The translations under genes and the position numbers were made by a program. The notes beneath the pieces are model-generated. The model had not been told where the DNA came from. It did no database searches and was given only the letters and a program-made list of their open reading frames with translations. A DNA stretch of 64,000 bases from Candidatus Oxydemutatoraceae bacterium (GTDB lineage: Bacteria > Pseudomonadota > Gammaproteobacteria > Poriferisulfidales > Oxydemutatoraceae): contig CBDCOZ010000003.1 of NCBI GenBank assembly GCA_965220085.1, positions 1,536,001 to 1,600,000 on the forward strand, in the 5' to 3' direction. How positions within the stretch are numbered: the first letter of the stretch is position 1; each line of letters opens with the position of its first letter. Shown here piece by piece: positions 38,587-51,987 of this stretch.

Positions 38587-40689
38587 CTATGCGGCTGCTT
38601 TGTTCTTGATGACTTCATCGACGATATTCGCCGGCACCTCGTCATACTTTTTGAATTGCATCGTATACGTCGCCCGCCCTTGGGTGGCGGAGCGCAAATC
38701 CGTCGCATAACCGAACATCTGCTTGAGCGGCACCAGAGACGCAATCCGCTTGCCCGAAACGCCATCCTCCATAGACTCAATGATGCCGCGGCGGCGATTC
38801 AGATCGCCGACCACATCGCCCATGTATTGCTCCGGCGTGACGACCTCAACCTGCATGATCGGCTCCAGCAATACCGGCGCGGCCTTCGTCACCCCTTCCT
38901 TGACGCCCTGCGATGCGGCGACCTTGAACGCCATCTCGGAAGAATCGACATCGTGATAGGAACCGTCATACAAAGTGACCTTCACATCCACCAAGGGATA
39001 ACCGGCGAGAACGCCGTTCTGCAGCTGCTCGCGCGCGCCCTTATCCACCGCCGGAATATATTCTTTCGGCACCGACCCGCCGACGATCTCATTGGAGAAC
39101 TCATACTCGCTGCCGGGCTCAAGCGGTTCAATCCGCAGCCAGACATGGCCGTATTGCCCGCGCCCGCCGGTCTGGCGGACAAACTTGGATTCCTGCTCCA
39201 CCATCTTGCGAATCGTCTCCCGGTAAGCGACTTGCGGCGCGCCGACATTCGCCTCCACGCCGAATTCGCGCTTCATCCTGTCCACGATAATTTCCAGATG
39301 CAACTCGCCCATGCCGGAGATAATCGTCTGCCCGCTCTCCTCATCCACACTCATACGGAAAGACGGATCCTCTTGCGCCAACTTTTGCAAGGCCAAACTC
39401 ATCTTCTCCTGATCCGCCTTGGTCTTCGGCTCGACCGCGACCGAGATGACAGGCTCCGGAAAGACCATGCTCTCCAGTTTGACCGGGTTATCGGCGCTGC
39501 ACAAGGTGTCGCCGGTCACCACATTCTTGAGGCCCACCGCAGCGGCGATATCACCCGCGCACACCTCTTTTATTTCCTGACGGGAATTGGAATGCATCTG
39601 CAAAATCCGACCGATGCGCTCCTTCTTGCGGCGCACCGCATTCAGTATGCTGTCGCCCGATTTCAGCACGCCCGAATACACGCGGAAGAAGGTCAAGTTG
39701 CCGACAAAAGGATCGCTGGCGATCTTAAACGCCAGCGCCGCAAACGGCTCGTCATCGTCGGGCTTTCTCAGCGGCGCCTCTTCGCCTTCGTCGGCGACCC
39801 CCTCGACGGCGGGTATGTCGGCCGGCGACGGCAGGTACCGCACCACCGCATCCAGCAAGGCTTGCACCCCTTTGTTCTTGAACGCCGACCCGCACAGCAC
39901 CGGCACGATCTCATTGGCCAGCGTCCGTTGCCGGATACCTTGATAAATCTCTTCCTCGGTCAGCGCATCATCCTCCAGATATTTGTTCATCAATTCTTCG
40001 TTTGCTTCGGCGGCGGCCTCCAACAACTCGGCGCGATACTTCGCGCATTCCTGTTTCATATCGTCGGGAATCTCTTTCGCCTCATAGGTCGCCCCCATAT
40101 CGTTCTCATTCCAGATAATCGCTTGCTCTTTGACCAAGTCCACCACGCCTTCAAAGTTCTCTTCGGCGCCGATCGGGAGTTGCAACGGACACGCCACCGA
40201 ACCCAAGCGTTCGCGAATCTGCCCGACCACATGAAGAAAATCGGCGCCGGCGCGATCCATCTTATTGACGAACGCGATTCTCGGCACCCGATAGGTCTCG
40301 GCCTGACGCCACACCGTCTCCGACTGCGGCTCCACGCCGCCGACCGCGCAAAACACGCCGACCGCGCCGTCCAACACCCGCAACGAGCGTTCCACCTCAA
40401 TCGTGAAGTCAACATGCCCGGGCGTGTCGATGATATTGATCCGATATTCCGGAAACTGCTGGTCCATCCCCTTCCAGAAACAGGTCGTCGCCGCCGAGGT
40501 GATGGTAATCCCCCGCTCCTGCTCCTGTTCCATCCAATCCATCACCGCGGCGCCGTCGTGCACCTCGCCGATCTTATGGGAGATACCGGTGTAGAAAAGC
40601 ACCCGTTCGGTCGTCGTCGTCTTGCCCGCATCGATGTGCGCCATGATGCCGATGTTGCGATATTTATCCAGCGAAACAGAGCGTGCCAT
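38587..40689 (-). CDS. fusA: Elongation factor G
   Basis: [30 protein letters not shown]. Confidence 0.99.
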
Positions 40690-40694
40690 TTTAA

Positions 40695-41168
<474 letters not shown>

Positions 41169-41173
41169 TTACC

Positions 41174-41548
41174 TCAGCCCTTGGCCCGTTTGGCGCCGTA
41201 CTTTGAACGGCCTTGGGTGCGATTCTCAACCCCTTGCGTATCCAGGCTGCCGCGCACGATGTGATAGCGCACACCCGGCAAATCCTTGACCCGTCCGCCG
41301 CGGATCAAAACCACCGAGTGTTCTTGCAGGTTGTGGCCTTCGCCGCCGATATACGTCGTGACTTCGTAGTCGTTGGTCAGGCGGACGCGCGCGACTTTGC
41401 GCAACGCCGAGTTGGGTTTCTTCGGGGTGGTTGTGTACACACGAGTGCACACGCCTCTTTTTTGAGGACATCGTTCAAGCGCGGTAACATTGCTTTTTGC
41501 AATCTTGCGCTTACGCGATTTGCGTACCAATTGATTGATAGTAGACAT
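41174..41548 (-). CDS. rpsL: 30S ribosomal protein S12
   Basis: [25 protein letters not shown]. Confidence 0.99.
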
Positions 41549-41967: not shown

Positions 41968-42454
41968 TTATCGTAGCGGGCCTGCGAGAAGGAGTGTCGT
42001 GCGAGTGCTGCGGCTTGCTCGCGCTATCGCAGCGGGCCTGCGAGAAGGGGCGTGTCGTGCGAGTGCTGCGGCTTGCTTGCGCTATCGCAGTCGGCATTCA
42101 AGAAGGGGTGTGTCGTGCGAGCGCCGAGGATGGCTCGCGCTATCGCAGTCGGCATTCAAGGAGGGCGTGTCGTGCAAGCCACCGAGGCTTGCTTGCGTTA
42201 TCGCAGTCGGCCTTCAAGAGGGAGTGTGTCGTGCGAGTGCTGCGGCTTGCTTGCGTTATCGCAGTCGGCCTTCAAGAGGGAGTGTGTCGTGCGAGTGCTG
42301 CGGCTTGCTTGCGCTATCGCAGTCGGCATTCAAGAAGGGGTGTGTCGTGCGAGTGCTGCAGCTTGCTTGCGCTATCGCAGTCGGCATTCAAGAAGGGGTG
42401 TGTCGTGCGAGTGCTGCGGCTTGCTCGCGCTATCGCAGCGGGCCTTCCAAGAAG
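41968..42454. repeat. Tandem array: 8 units of 58 bp (first 56 bp) plus the gene 3' end as a partial ninth unit
   Basis: Unit starts 41968, 42024, 42082, 42140, 42198, 42256, 42314, 42372, 42430; consensus CTATCGCAGTCGGCATTCAAGAAGGGGTGTGTCGTGCGAGTGCTGCGGCTTGCTTGCG. Confidence 0.97.
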
Positions 42455-43958
42455 AGGCGCAGGCGCAAGCGTATATCAACCCCCAGGTTGATGGTCATCG
42501 TATAGGTGTCTGCGCTGTCTGCGACGCCATCGTGCACTGTGAAGGTGAAACTGGCGAAGTCGGAGGCGGCGCGAGCGCCCATCGGGGGATACCAGGTGAA
42601 AGTGCCATTGTCCAGATTGGCAACGGTCACCGAGGCGTCGTCGGTCACTGCGGTACCGCCGATGCGCAACGTGCCCGTGCCGACTGCTATGGTCTCAACG
42701 ATGGTGATGGCGACCAGGGCGGCGTTGTTATCCTCATCCATGAACGGGAAGTCGGAGACCTTGAAGACGAAGGGCGCGGCTAAGGTTGTGGTTGTGGGCA
42801 CCTTCACCGAATTGTCGGCGCTGGTAGGGGCATCGTTGACATTGCGGATGATGTTGCCTGTGGTGCAGCGTCGCTCGCTGTTGGGCGGCGTGAAGTTGTC
42901 CTCAAAGGATACGCACACCCGCACAAACTTGTCGACATGCGCCTGCAACGGCGTGAAAGTGGCGGCGGTGGCCCCGTCAATATCGGCGTAGTTGGCGTCT
43001 GTCAGGGGCGCGTCATTGCCCGGAGGATCAGCCTGTTGCCATTGCCAGGCGATGGTGGAGCGGTTAATACCGCTATTGGCATCTGCGATAGTGCCGGTGG
43101 TGGCGGTCAGGGTCACATCCTCGTTCCAGGGCGGCGCTGTCACATCGGGCAGACCGATGGCCTCCACCTGCGCCGTCGGCAACACCAGGTTTATGGTGAT
43201 GGTGGCCATGTTGCTCCGGGAGAGGGTGGGTGAAAATACGCTGAAAGTAAAGCTGGCATAGCCCTCAGCAGGTGCCGTTGCATCTTCGGGCAACCTGTAC
43301 ACTGGGCCGTTAATTCCTCCGAAGTCAGGGAGTAGTGCATTATTACCCTCCCCCCAGATAAGCCCAGCGGCACTATGAATAGAACCAGCGCAGTAGCAGG
43401 TTGGGTTTCTATTACTACACCTCCAATGTCATCGTCATCTTCGTCAAAGAAGGTGAAGTCATCTGACGAGAAGGCATAGCTCGCGGTACCCAGTGGAATC
43501 TCAATAGTGTTGTCCTGGGCAACAGGCAAATCATCCACATTCACCACGGCGGCGACGGAGGACCAGCATCGGGTCTCGCTGTTGCTGGCGTCATCCTCAA
43601 AGGTCGCACAGGCGCGGATGAACTTGCCGACATGGACCTGCAATGGGGTGAACATGGCCTCGGTCGACGTGGTGTTGGTTATATCAATGTAGGCGCTTTC
43701 CGTCGGTGTGCCGCTTACCGGGGCATCGGCTTGTGACCACTGCCAAGTCGGCGTGAACACGGTGAGGCCATCGGCGGTATCGCCTATCGTGCCTTGGGCT
43801 GCGGTCAGTGCGTTGTCCTCGTTGGGTCCCGTCGTAGTCAGATTGGTGCCGTCGGCTGCCGTCACCGCCGGTTCGCCGGTGGCGTTCTGCGCCTGCGCTT
43901 GAGCGCAAACAACAAACAGCGCCGGCAACAGAAGCGAGCAGAGGCTGCGCCGTATCAT
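42430..43958 (-). pseudogene. Secreted Ig-like/cadherin-like repeat protein (~509 aa if repaired), split by one frameshift near 43350-43395; ends DIRLRLRLFLEGPLR
   Basis: GGGAG RBS + signal peptide MIRRSLCSLLLPALFVVCAQAQA; two (X-Y) domain pairs across ORFs 43191..44105 and 42430..43302: X = LTA..GTI.D...WQW.QAD...FTPLQ.HV.KF.R.C..FED; Y = N..D.P...DN...F...DF.F.DED...ASFTF.V. Confidence 0.8.
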
Positions 43959-44258
43959 CGTTGCTCCCCGCCGCGCGGGGGCGGTATCGTAAGTTTTGCA
44001 GTTCATGCTCTTGCTTTGATCAGGGCGAGCAACATCAGCGACCACAGACTCCCGCGGATTCGTGTTGCCTGCCGTTGCGCGGGAGTCATATCGAAAATTT
44101 GACAAATCATATCTACGGTTTTAATAACGACATGTTTCATGCATGCACGATTAGTGCCCTACTATACCATAAAACGCGCGTCACCCGCCAATGCCGTTGT
44201 ATCTTGCCGCATCCCTGTGCGCCCTGACATTCCCTTCTCCCCGCCGGATATTTGCAAT

Positions 44259-44287
44259 CGCCGTTTTACAACAATTTCCGCTGTCGG
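44259..44287. repeat. Right copy of ~30-bp imperfect inverted repeat (partner 41688-41717)
   Basis: CGCCGTTTTACAACAATTTCCGCTGTCGG; its GCCGTTTTACAAC core recurs at 47711-47723. Confidence 0.7.
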
Positions 44288-44341
44288 GCGGGCGGAGTCG
44301 CGTACGCAAGCCCCCTATGCCGATTACGCTTGATGCCTGTT

Positions 44342-44664
44342 TGATGCCATGCCATATCGACACCTGCGGCAAATATTGTGCCCTGTCCTGAGTACTTGAA
44401 GCCTCGGCCCGCAATATACTTCCGGCAACCCGGAACATTTCCGGCATGACTCACCTTTGATACCAAGACACATCGGACGCCGGCGCCACACATTGTGCGT
44501 CGTGGGTGTGTGATGCTTCGGCCCGCAACAAACCCTCTTCAAATCCCAAACTCTTCCCGAAGCGTACGGCGAAAGCGCTCATTGAATGCGCATGATGCCA
44601 TGCCATATCGACACCTGCGGCAAATATTGTGCCCTGTCCTGAGTACTTGAAGCCTCGGCCCGCA
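44342..44664. repeat. Perfect 72-bp direct repeat (44342-44413 and 44593-44664), 179 bp apart
   Basis: TGATGCCATGCCATATCGACACCTGCGGCAAATATTGTGCCCTGTCCTGAGTACTTGAAGCCTCGGCCCGCA read at both positions. Confidence 0.95.
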
Positions 44665-44693
44665 GCGCGCTCCCTTTTATAGCGTGTTGCTCC

Positions 44694-44792
44694 CATCATC
44701 TCAGAGCTTCAAGGTTTGGCGACATCCGCCCTCGTCCGGAATCTTCCACATTGGCCAGTTCATCGTCTCAGGGCTTCAAGTTGGCGACCATC
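44694..44792. repeat. Imperfect ~32-bp direct repeat, period 67 bp
   Basis: CATCATCTCAGAGCTTCAAGGTTTGGCGACATC (44694) vs CATCGTCTCAGGGCTTCAAGTTGGCGACCATC (44761). Confidence 0.8.
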
Positions 44793-45001
44793 GTTGCCTC
44801 CTGTACGCCGGAAGCGGCTATTCTACAGGCTTTTGCGGCCGTAGAATGTGTCGATATTGCGGCAACCCGTGTCAAAGCGGCAATCCGCAATGCTTCCGGC
44901 GCCAGCGCTTGGGAGCCCGCAGCGCCGCAAACAAATGCGCTGGTTGCGGGGCGAATATCTCGCACAGCGGCAGGCGCGGGCTTCGTGCGCGCCGCCATCG
45001 T

Positions 45002-45090
45002 TCCAATATCTGGTATACTGCGCTATCGGGGTGAGCAACTTGCTCCTTTAGCTCGCCCCGTCCGCCGCCGCTCCAATATCTGGTATACTG
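45002..45090 (+). promoter_or_regulatory. Duplicated 19-bp element containing an extended -10 (TGgTATACT), flanking a hairpin
   Basis: TCCAATATCTGGTATACTG at 45002-45020 and 45072-45090; CGGGGTGAGC/GCTCGCCCCG stem between them; upstream of the 45175 gene. Confidence 0.55.
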
Positions 45091-45174
45091 GCATCATTCC
45101 GATTAGCCCGATGAAAGAGTCGCCCGCACACAACGCCGATGCCGTCACATCTCAGTTTGCATAAGTATTTCCGC

Positions 45175-47565
45175 ATGCCTCCTTCCTTCCCCTGCATTTT
45201 TGCCAGGGTTTGCGCAACACTGTTCGCCGGTGTCTTCGCCGCGAACACCGCACACGCACAAGCCGGCCAATCCAACTGCACCCTCAACGAGGCGCTCACC
45301 CAAGTTCCCTCCGCCCAGCGCGCGCAGGTCTCCATGCAATTTGAGGCCTGCGCGGACAAGGACTGGGCGGCGCAAAAGCATTTCCTCTTCGGCGAAGGGT
45401 TCGGCTTTGACTTCTGCTACTGCAATGTCCGAGTGCTGGATGCGTCCTCGTCGAGCGAATGCGACCACCCTGCGACGACCTCCGCACTCAGCGCCACCGT
45501 GGACAACAACTTCAACCTCCACTATTACTTCGGCGCGACCCTGCAGTATCTTCCGGAGCGGACGGAGGAAAACAAGGACGCCTGCTTTGTGGCGCATTGT
45601 TTGGACGGGAAGGAGCCGTCGGGGTTTAATATGAACGGCGAAACCGAATGCGCAACGCCCTCAACGGCGGTGACGGTTCGCGCCATAGCGATGCCGGCAG
45701 AGGGCGGGAGCGCTGCCATTATGGGCGCGACCACCGCCTCGGTGATTCTCAACACCACCGCAACCATCGTCGCCACTCCGGCGGAGGGATGGTATGTCGA
45801 TCGGTGGGAAGGCGACGGCGGCGCTTGCGACGGTCAAACCGGCAGGCTCGAAGGTTTCAGGGGCGTGGACACAGACGAGAAATCTTGTTCGCTGCCCGCC
45901 AGCGCCGGACTGACTGTGACGGCGCATTTTGCGTTGGCGCGGGTGACGGTTCGCGCCATAGCGATGCCGGCGGAAGGCGGGAGCGCTGCCATTATGGGCG
46001 CGACCACCGCCTCGGTGATTTCAAACACCACCGCAACCATCGTCGCCACTCCGGCGGAGGGGTGGTATGTTGACCGATGGGAGGGGGACGGCGGGGCCTG
46101 CGCCGGACAAGTTGGCGGGTTTGGAAGTTCCGGAGCGGCGGACACGGATGAAAAATCCTGTTCGCTGGCCGCGAGCGCCGGACTGCGGGTGACGGTTCGT
46201 TTCGCGTCGGCGCTGTGCGTTTTCAGCGAACTTCCGTCGGGGCTGCAAACCGAGTTGGTCTCCCTGCAGATTGACGCGTGCAACGCGAAAGGATGGGGGG
46301 CGCAAAAGCATATTTTCGGCGGGGCGGAAGTGTGCCACTGCAACATCAATGCGTGGGACGGGAGGAGCGGCGACCCGGCCCGGCAGTCGTGTTTGGACGG
46401 CTCCCTCCCGCCGCATCGAACCTCCGGGTTTTCCTCGCTTGGAGAGACAAACTCCAACACGGTCGCCCCATTTTACTTCGGCGCGACCCTGCAGTATCTT
46501 CCGGAGCGGACGGAGGAAAACAAGGACGATTGTTTTGTGGCGCGATGTTCGGGGTTGACGGAGCCGTCGGGTTTCAACACAAACGGGGAGACGGAATGCC
46601 TCGCGGCAAGCGGGGCGATTTGCGGGGGTTTGACTCCGGCGAAAAATTTTGACGGCGTCGCCTGCGTGGAAGGTTGCGCGACGGGAGCGACATTGAATTC
46701 GGCTACGAACACTTGCGAATGCGGCACGGGCAATCCTAACGACTGCCTGACGCCGAGCGAGGCGGTTTGCGCGGAGCTGACTCCGCCGAAGTTTTTTGAC
46801 GGGTCGGATTGCGTTGATTTTGCGACTTGCGCGGGGCTGTTGACTTTGAATCGGCAGCATAACGGGTGCGAGTGCCGCGCGCCGAATGTTGGGACGGCTT
46901 CGGATTGTCGGGCGCCGAATCCGATTGTTTGCGCCGCGCCGGCGGTTCGGCATCCGACGGCGAATGTTTGCCAATGCAATGCGCCGAATGTTGGGACGGG
47001 GGCGGACTGCAAAGCGCCAAGCGCGGAGGTTTGCGCGGCGCTGAGTCCGGGGAGGTTTTTTGACGGGTCGGGCTGCGTTGATTTTGCGGAGTGCGCGGGG
47101 CTGTTGGTTTTGAATCCGGCGCGCAACGGCTGCGAGTGCCGCGCGCCGAATGTTGGGACGGCTTCGGATTGTCGGGCGCCGAATCCGATTGTTTGCGCCG
47201 CGCCGGCGGTTCGGCATCCGACGGCGAATGTTTGCCAATGCAATGCGCCGAATGTTGGGACGGGGGCGGACTGCAAAGCGCCAAGCGCGGAGGTTTGCGG
47301 GGGGCTGAGTCCGGGGAGGTTTTTTGACGGGTCGGGCTGCGTTGATTTTGCGGAGTGCGCGATGGCGGCGACATTGAATGCGGCGGCGAATACGTGCGAA
47401 TGCAACTCGCCCAACGAAGGGACGGCGCAGGATTGCAAGGCGCCGAGCGCGGAAGTGTGCGGGGATTTGACGCCGGCGAAGCGCTTTGACGGAACTGCCT
47501 GCGTCGATGCGCCCGAAGACATCAACCTGCGTCTGCGTATCTTCCTTGAGGGCCCGTTGCGATAG
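45175..47565 (+). CDS. Secreted cysteine-rich modular protein with two InlB B-repeat-like domains and Cys-rich tandem repeats; ends DINLRLRIFLEGPLR (alternative start 45139)
   Basis: Signal peptide ...AGVFAANTAHA-Q; 2 x 91-aa repeat (ATPAEGWYVDRWEGD...C...C...VT..F); 2 x Cys domain ending YFGATLQYLPERTEENKD; 88-aa repeats with 10 Cys each. Confidence 0.88.
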   Translation: MPPSFPCIFARVCATLFAGVFAANTAHAQAGQSNCTLNEALTQVPSAQRAQVSMQFEACADKDWAAQKHFLFGEGFGFDFCYCNVRVLDASSSSECDHPATTSALSATVDNNFNLHYYFGATLQYLPERTEENKDACFVAHCLDGKEPSGFNMNGETECATPSTAVTVRAIAMPAEGGSAAIMGATTASVILNTTATIVATPAEGWYVDRWEGDGGACDGQTGRLEGFRGVDTDEKSCSLPASAGLTVTAHFALARVTVRAIAMPAEGGSAAIMGATTASVISNTTATIVATPAEGWYVDRWEGDGGACAGQVGGFGSSGAADTDEKSCSLAASAGLRVTVRFASALCVFSELPSGLQTELVSLQIDACNAKGWGAQKHIFGGAEVCHCNINAWDGRSGDPARQSCLDGSLPPHRTSGFSSLGETNSNTVAPFYFGATLQYLPERTEENKDDCFVARCSGLTEPSGFNTNGETECLAASGAICGGLTPAKNFDGVACVEGCATGATLNSATNTCECGTGNPNDCLTPSEAVCAELTPPKFFDGSDCVDFATCAGLLTLNRQHNGCECRAPNVGTASDCRAPNPIVCAAPAVRHPTANVCQCNAPNVGTGADCKAPSAEVCAALSPGRFFDGSGCVDFAECAGLLVLNPARNGCECRAPNVGTASDCRAPNPIVCAAPAVRHPTANVCQCNAPNVGTGADCKAPSAEVCGGLSPGRFFDGSGCVDFAECAMAATLNAAANTCECNSPNEGTAQDCKAPSAEVCGDLTPAKRFDGTACVDAPEDINLRLRIFLEGPLR
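45670..46203 (+). repeat. Two intragenic 273-bp (91-aa) repeats
   Basis: GTGACGGTTCGCGCCATAGCGATGCCGGC at 45670 and 45943. Confidence 0.9.
46792..47360 (+). repeat. Intragenic 264-bp (88-aa) near-identical tandem repeat, slightly over 2 copies, with degenerate flanking units
   Basis: TTTTTTGAC-GGGTCGG anchors at 46801, 47065, 47329. Confidence 0.92.

Positions 47566-47790: not shown

Positions 47791-51987
<4,197 letters not shown>

Follow-up and report, generated by a model that had tools for sequence, protein, structure and literature searches.

A conserved helix-free peptide on many Sec-exported proteins of an uncultured gammaproteobacterium: a candidate address tag for the cell surface

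Introduction

To our knowledge, all well-described bacterial sorting tags of the many-to-one kind combine a short signature and a membrane helix, and each has its own dedicated enzyme for processing. In the LPXTG/sortase, PEP-CTERM/exosortase and MYXO-CTERM/myxosortase systems, one short signature is carried by dozens to hundreds of surface proteins per lineage. GlyGly-CTERM and rhombosortase were reportedly described by Haft and Varghese in 2011. Here, we analyze a C-terminal peptide tail, LRLR[LIV]FLEGPLR, that was noticed on two genes in a stretch of 64,000 nucleotides (the window) from a member of the family Oxydemutatoraceae. An instructive comparison is with Vibrio cholerae, where, as Gadwal et al. 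2018 (PMC6219818) describe, rhombosortase cleaves the GlyGly-CTERM of the trypsin-like protease VesB, which becomes lipid-modified; following its type II export, VesB requires this tag to stay on the surface and is otherwise released.

As with GlyGly-CTERM, many unrelated proteins exported by Sec carry the tail at their extreme C-terminus, and type II secretion is present in the genomes concerned. Unlike GlyGly-CTERM, the tail has no glycine run (its single glycine lies in EGP), no membrane helix and no basic cluster at the end; it is 10-15 residues long, as against about 25-35, and is also placed N-terminally. Because it has no membrane helix, an intramembrane protease such as rhombosortase cannot process it. 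With the LPXTG, PEP-CTERM and MYXO-CTERM systems it shares the many-to-one arrangement, whereas their tripartite architecture is absent from it and no NCBIfam sorting-signal model matched it; no processing-enzyme gene adjoins the tail genes (no search aimed at exosortase or sortase genes was made). We find that the tail is a selected, portable peptide module carried by very different passengers, and we consider it likely to be a localization or docking tag of some kind.

Results

In both genes of the window, the last residues before the stop codon are (D)I(R/N)LRLR(L/I)FLEGPLR. The first tail (42430..42477, minus strand, stop at 42430-42432) translates to DIRLRLRLFLEGPLR and the second (47518..47565, plus strand) to DINLRLRIFLEGPLR, each with a TAG stop. 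Codon-by-codon rereading of the DNA gave the same result as the initial annotation, with 13 of 15 residues identical and different codons for 8 of those 13. The claim that the two proteins have nothing else in common was likewise borne out, as BLASTP aligns the tail alone (14/23, E 5e-6) and other segments give E 0.27 or worse. The two proteins of the initial annotation proved to be a small part of the carriers in a search of the whole source genome (G000; 2,492,841 bp in three contigs, with the window at G000:C3:1536001-1600000). A six-frame scan for [FL]LEG[PAS]LR followed by a stop yielded 220 matches, 186 of which end stop-to-stop frames of at least 150 amino acids (aa) and are counted here as carriers; the other 34 are short remnants. 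The 186 frames, ending LRLR[LIV]FLEGPLR, total 162,891 codons, i.e., about 19.6% of the genome; 15 of them are at least 1,000 aa long, the longest having 15,193 aa. Because the back-translated RLRxFLEGPLR with its stop codon occurs 211 times in G000, and the same pattern read backwards not once, the occurrence of the tail is far above that expected by chance. There are also 4-26 matches to the motif in each of 12 related genomes.

The 186 tails have 160 different 36-base codings that specify only nine peptides, the commonest being LRLRLFLEGPLR (129 tails), LRLRIFLEGPLR (29) and LRLRVFLEGPLR (21), while the six others are singletons or doubletons. The mean pairwise difference among the codings is 6.2 of 36 bases, and pairwise codon differences comprise 88,986 synonymous (91%) versus 9,122 nonsynonymous changes, the latter mostly at the L/I/V site. 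It should be noted that the regular expression fixed the last seven residues; the preceding four residues, and the tails recovered with a looser FLEG[PA] scan, are equally constant. All three stop codons are used (TAG 114, TAA 48, TGA 24). The large number of codings for few peptides and the use of all three stops therefore indicate selection on the peptide and not a DNA repeat, as had been proposed from the two window copies; other genera, moreover, encode the arginines with AGA or AGG instead of the CGN codons of G000. The tail peptide is under purifying selection, and the duplication of gene ends at the DNA level is real but secondary.

This duplication is seen at gene 1, where a tandem array with a 58-bp unit (41994..42454, 7.9 copies) starts within the tail codons. 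Its first unit consists of the last eight tail codons and the stop, and the later units are decayed, out-of-frame copies; thus, DNA-level duplication of gene ends accompanies the constraint on the peptide. Bases 1-6 past the stop have a consensus of about C-G-C-G-A-G with 0.6-1.0 bit each, similar to the information at third codon positions, and then conservation vanishes. We take these six bases to be a trace of common ancestry, with recombination break-points lying directly behind the stop; alternatively, they may reflect a termination context. The tail could be viewed as mainly a handle at the DNA level: a conserved 3' end would drive recombination, gene conversion or tandem duplication among the members of a phase-variable gene family, and the peptide would be a by-product. 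Arrays that begin inside tail codons (with spacings of 58, 156 and 168 bp), the remnant frames, the conserved bases past the stop, and the leaders and poly-proline/poly-C tracts shared among carriers (described below) are all compatible with such a role. However, an incidental peptide would leave unexplained the excess of synonymous differences among 160 DNA versions, the different codons of other genera and the in-frame occurrence of the motif at the N-terminus of unrelated genes, and the homology available for recombination may itself be a side effect. We regard this explanation as quite improbable.

The carriers are characterized by export signals and by varied contents. By our own heuristics, 172 of the 186 frames have a segment resembling a signal peptide, and in 79 of the 186 a run of at least four prolines, encoded by a poly-C tract, lies just upstream of that segment. 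A strict form of the family leader is present in 50 frames; 45 of these end in the tail, and the other five are a G-to-D variant or broken genes. When 16 carriers were scanned against Pfam, eight matched He_PIG, Big_9/Cadherin_3/4, Calx-beta/DUF5006, PPC or InlB-B repeat models and eight matched nothing. The proposed association with signal peptides and diverse passengers is supported. Library scans of the tail proteins gave no Pfam or NCBIfam model covering the tail itself, in keeping with the initial view that it is not recognizable as a described signal, and full-text literature searches for the tail peptide strings returned no relevant occurrence.

Gene 2 (45139..47565, plus strand) is a single frame of 808 aa from its first ATG, although translation more probably starts with MPPSFP... 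near 45175, the signal peptide extending to about 45258; it has a Sec-type leader, two InlB-B-repeat-like units, cysteine-rich 264-bp repeats and the terminal tail. Internal tandem duplications at 45669-46213 and 46751-47446 (273 bp x 2.0 and 264 bp x 2.3-2.6, with 85-93% matches) copy an InlB-B-repeat-like unit and a cysteine-rich unit. Gene 1, in contrast, is frame-broken. Its C-terminal open reading frame (42430..43302, minus strand, 290 aa) contains cadherin-like/immunoglobulin-like passenger domains and the tail, whereas the N-terminal open reading frame (43191..44105, minus strand) is in another frame and carries the family leader MIRRSLCSLLLPALFVVCAQAQAQ at about 43887-43958; the break lies within the overlap at 43191-43302. 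The attribution of a Sec-type leader to both proteins therefore stands for gene 2, while in gene 1 leader and tail are in different frames. A paralogue of gene 1, 84% identical, is a single intact frame of 543 aa (G000:C3:1047214-1048104). In an AlphaFold2 model of the last 150 aa of gene 1, based on an alignment of 10 rows, a beta-sandwich is predicted with block-mean confidence (pLDDT) of 78-95, and the tail appears as an unstructured extension with a pLDDT of 53-64.

The motif is not restricted to protein ends. A profile built from the tail found three Sec proteins in which it lies near the N-terminus, 20-25 residues past the predicted signal-peptide cleavage site. This N-terminal module consists of an MKKLL.. 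signal peptide, NPMTVPQDVLT[IV]AQA, an acidic linker, PL[KR]LRLRVFLEGPLR, GGSS and then the cargo, which is an array of PPC domains in two proteins and a trypsin-like protein in the third; it is modeled as disordered (pLDDT 38-47, alignment of three rows). Because of these three copies, and of extensions of 13-15 residues behind the motif in some relatives, a free C-terminus is not essential. The description of the tail as a C-terminal tag thus applies to the ends of 186 frames in G000, but not as a requirement.

One N-terminal copy is located immediately ahead of GGS, within the pro-region of a trypsin-like protease, which bears on the possibility that the motif is a tag for protease recognition, maturation or turnover, with the C-terminal ...PLR or the internal ...PLR/GGS being read by a trypsin-like or tail-specific periplasmic protease. 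The tails of G000 do end in arginine, and the genome encodes a multi-copy secreted family of Trypsin_2-like proteins. The terminal arginine is not conserved, however, since in relatives the last residue is Q, N, L or P, or another 13-15 residues follow; orthologues of the trypsin-like protease are themselves cargo with sorting signals, and ten invariant residues are long for a cleavage site. A protease tag is, in our view, very improbable. The Trypsin_2-like family comprises at least eight genes of about 280-330 aa, ending ...NLNRYCSDSN, with loci at G000:C3:189880-194733, 216775-221000 and 335530-337600; its members are tail-less, and the family is absent from the tail-free relative G008.

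A relaxed pattern, [RK..]x[RK..]x[FY]LEG[AP], was run on 19 genomes of the same Genome Taxonomy Database (GTDB) family and matched 13 of them, with 0 matches for the reversed pattern. The matches by genus are as follows: G000 (genus g1) has 216; in g4, G016 has 26, G018 17, G003 7, G012 5 and G008 0; in g2, G010 has 11, G014 and G006 7 each, and G001 0; in g3, G011 has 12, G015 and G007 8 each, G017 7 and G002 4; all three genomes of g5 and the single genome of g6 have 0. At the loci that were read, the carriers in relatives are large proteins, of 870-3,300 aa or more, and their arginines are often encoded by AGA or AGG. All seven matches in G003 end in RIRVFLEGALQ, RIKVFLEGALN or RLRVFLEGALQ before the stop; in G012, VRVRVRVFLEGPLQ and a stop terminate two proteins of more than 3,300 aa, with three tandem remnants in addition; in G010 and G006, RLRVFLEGAV is followed by 13-15 further residues; a further example of an end is VRVRVFLEGPLQ before the stop.

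The strict form of the tail in G000 was found in 0 of 40 relatives, and a pattern of eight codons with CGN arginines in 0 of 34 other genomes of the order. Strict patterns, in the G000 form and in the form ...FLEGAL[QN]-stop alike, had no match in JGI metagenome contigs, and among 185,579 species genomes the strict form matched once, out of frame inside a porin gene. The relaxed pattern covered just two of the non-family genomes of the order; in an even sample of the class, it matched once among 399 non-family genomes, inside an efflux-pump gene. As far as the sequences searched indicate, the tail appears to be confined to one bacterial family and hugely expanded in G000, the outside matches being due to chance.

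Some features of these genomes concern the copies themselves. The contigs C17, C31, C42 and C46 of G010 break less than 100 bases from copies of one gene end, ...YLRLRVFLEGAVLTNTTTIQT[DN]P; the true copy number in this draft genome is probably under-counted. The G012 remnants (G012:C1:1225902-1227488) are three tandem frames of 45 aa, each ending ...VRIRIRMFLEGP[LP]P before the stop; they resemble the "ghost tail" duplication behind genes of G000, and the habit is thus common to genera.

The trypsin-like protein with the N-terminal motif, for which we retrieved 1,082 homologues, allows the tail to be compared with GlyGly-CTERM within one protein family. The protease orthologues P0001-P0003 end in a glycine run, a hydrophobic helix and a basic cluster, i.e., a GlyGly-CTERM-like signal, where the homologues P0004 and P0151, both encoded on one other contig of 1.34 Mb, end in LGLRLRVFLEGA... 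(in full, ...LGLRLRVFLEGAELSR and ...LGLRLRVFLEGALPL). The whole genome of G008 has no tail-like end even with a loose expression; its proteins of 17,453, 6,823, 1,789 and 1,764 aa end in GGGGG-AM[DEN]P-W-LLLL...RRRR, which is GlyGly-CTERM-like. The largest of these is a minus-strand open frame of 17,453 codons; its product, if exported in the manner of Vibrio VesB, would lie at the extreme of what rhombosortase and type II secretion handle. The enzyme itself (TIGR03902) scores over the cut-off in G000 and in all six tail-free genomes, and G000 keeps two GlyGly-CTERM-like proteins, identified by eye in a heuristic list. As the two signals coexist in several genomes, the tail is not a simple replacement of GlyGly-CTERM.

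Other described signals were found to differ from the tail in their defining features. In the sister family, the autotransporter beta-domain (PF03797) forms the C-terminal end of comparable adhesins that are exported by Sec and are in some cases giant, so that domain and tail may fill the same anchoring role; the domain is a barrel of about 250 residues and 12 strands, compared to the single strand of the tail. It has no match in G000 versus 1 to 32 matches in each of four sister-family genomes, some on giant proteins. The signal of the beta-barrel assembly machinery (BAM) is, like the tail, an amphipathic beta-strand at the C-terminus in which hydrophobic residues alternate and an aromatic one occurs. 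The tail, however, ends in R, Q, N, L or P or in an extension of 13-15 aa and not in an aromatic residue, the register around its phenylalanine differs, and the BAM signal closes a barrel, whereas the domain before the tail is predicted to be a soluble beta-sandwich. The C-terminal domain of the type IX secretion system is a folded domain of about 70-100 residues. Like the tail it targets large adhesins from the C-terminus, but the tail is short and has no predicted structure (type IX machinery was not searched for). Type I secretion signals are a further case of C-terminal targeting of large adhesins; type I substrates have no Sec signal peptide, unlike most tail frames, and TolC is present in G000 (ATP-binding cassette and membrane fusion components were not examined). 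The tail fails the defining features of every sorting signal compared.

A component that might read the tail was sought among the envelope proteins of G000, which has one Omp85 protein (BamA), a complete type II system, a second secretin module and one TolC. No usher (PF00577) or CsgG (PF03783) match and no extra Omp85 or TpsB was found in this genome; Slam (PF04575) had no match either, but the control genomes likewise had none. Type II secretion, rhombosortase and BamA do not track the tail, because they are present with and without it, and GspC, the second secretin and rhombosortase were discarded as discriminating markers for their presence in tail-free genomes. A complex prediction of BamA (residues 345-765) with a tail-bearing domain scored 0.00 in a run without controls and so gave no support, but it speaks neither for nor against binding. 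Subtraction of the whole tail-free genome G008 from 1,905 rough gene calls of G000 left 614 genes without a match, 159 with the tail and 455 without it, of which 117 carry a leader.

The candidates that emerged were mostly rejected. Two porin-like outer-membrane proteins had a distribution in profiling that does not fit the tail. PPC-repeat proteins were set aside as a scaffold or reader, as the PPC protein adjoining an N-motif gene was found in 0 of 18 relatives and PPC domains are the cargo of several tail proteins. The GlyGly-CTERM protein adjoining rhombosortase has a body unique to G000, only its sorting signal having matches elsewhere, and the trypsin-like protein is excluded by its own orthologues, which are tagged cargo. 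Among the tail-positive genomes, 10 of 13 encode a PF13557 "transporter" barrel (G000:C3:2005979-2007046), as against 0 of 6 among those free of tails. None of the three g2 genomes with tails has it, however; related genomes cannot count as independent samples, and members of its family occur very widely (4,566 matches, with about 50% identity in other phyla); for these reasons, the barrel as a reader is only a weak lead. The dedicated export or attachment machine that had initially been envisaged was thus found neither by gene neighborhood nor by subtraction or profiling.

The same machinery is central to the main rival of a retention tag, namely that the tail is a signal for translocation across the outer membrane, read by GspC/GspD, the second secretin or BamA, after which the protein is released or held in some other way. 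The complete type II system and second secretin of G000 would provide for it, as would the lack of autotransporter barrels in a genome whose sister family places such barrels on similar giant proteins, and the GspC PDZ domain is described as selecting some type II substrates in Vibrio (PMC12369372). The candidate machines are, however, equally present in the six tail-free genomes of the family. We also know of no type II substrate for which a linear signal is a requirement. In Vibrio, furthermore, the C-terminal position holds a tag for retention, not for secretion (PMC6219818). We consider the translocation reading unlikely.

As to the genomic setting, the two window genes are wedged between neighbors that we take from the sequence to be fusA-rpsG-rpsL (38587-41548) and rpoC (47791-51987), in a region that is presumably contiguous as rpoBC-rpsLG-fusA in the normal case. 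A parallel is found in G003, where a tail gene of 3,295 aa is directly upstream of what we take to be the nusG-rplKAJL-rpoB cluster. In a separate observation, G000 has a gene of 1,297 aa (G000:C3:1913062-1916955, minus strand) that is absent from G008; its N-terminus presumably resembles Cas12a/Cpf1-type nucleases, and a small gene that we assume to be Cas4-like adjoins it.

Discussion

On balance, we lean to the interpretation that the motif [LIVMF]-R-[LIV]-[RK]-[LIVM]-F-L-E-G-[AP], in G000 LRLR[LIV]FLEGPLR at the carboxyl end, is a family-restricted, helix-free address tag on Sec-exported envelope proteins that are docked for retention at the surface. The retention part is favored mainly because the tail occupies the place of a known retention tag on the protease orthologues and on the giant adhesins of a sister species; this equivalence with a surface-retention tag is an argument from position. 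Under the mechanism that we envisage, a carrier would be exported by Sec and would then cross the outer membrane, most likely through the type II system, which every family member has. The motif, which is modeled as a free and unstructured extension at both termini (in shallow alignments of 10 and 3 rows), would form an amphipathic strand whose two faces consist of leucines and of Arg/Arg/Phe/Glu, respectively, and which E-G-P/A terminates. Such a strand might dock non-covalently onto a conserved outer-membrane component, either the edge strand of a protein or lipopolysaccharide, and would keep the protein on the cell surface, i.e., do the job that a GlyGly-CTERM-derived lipid would do for other proteins in the same bacteria. 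Retention by strand docking after type II export, in this specific form, is a tentative proposal that may well prove wrong.

The same strand could be thought to bind its own kind, the tails pairing mutually as a beta zipper of leucine and arginine faces that ties varied proteins into one surface coat. The alternation of hydrophobic and basic residues, the free tail in the models and the very high copy number are what such a zipper would call for; like-charged arginine faces would nevertheless repel each other, and FLEG[AP] is conserved so strictly that a specific partner is suggested. This is the least probable of the explanations considered here.

Several observations weigh against docking of the tail for surface retention. 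The conserved components that might serve it are found regardless of the tail: all 19 genomes of the family have GspC, the second secretin and BamA, and 18 of the 19 have rhombosortase. Ten 20-kb loci around the tail genes of G003 and G012 have no accessory gene in common, and no clear reader candidate was recognized among the 455 non-tail genes of G000 that lack a match in G008, including the 117 with a leader. G006, G010 and G014 have both tails and giant GlyGly-CTERM proteins. There is also turnover at the DNA level, in the form of tandem copies of gene ends, short remnant frames and the partly conserved bases past the stop. Finally, passage of proteins of 15,000 aa through the type II system is an assumption.

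In its boldest form, which we hold loosely and would not expect to be correct in every part, the address-tag interpretation suggests a new class of surface-sorting signal: a helix-free strand of 10 residues that works at either end of a protein with no sortase-like enzyme and might plug varied adhesins, including those of 15,000 residues, into a conserved outer-membrane component. The anchoring role that autotransporter barrels and GlyGly-CTERM have elsewhere may have passed to it in this lineage, which may have permitted the phase-variable repertoire of about 186 genes in one symbiont. The internal contrasts make the question testable, as tail-bearing can be compared with tail-free relatives, and the tail with GlyGly-CTERM within one protease family. 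The tail has no helix and no processing enzyme was found for it, yet its exact letters are maintained across a fifth of G000, and it recurs in at least four genera. If it is indeed an anchoring or docking strand, it would point to an as yet unknown way of holding proteins on a Gram-negative surface and would constitute a compact, portable display tag. It would also explain how, in a host-associated uncultured marine bacterium, hundreds of surface proteins can be exchanged for one another at a shared attachment.

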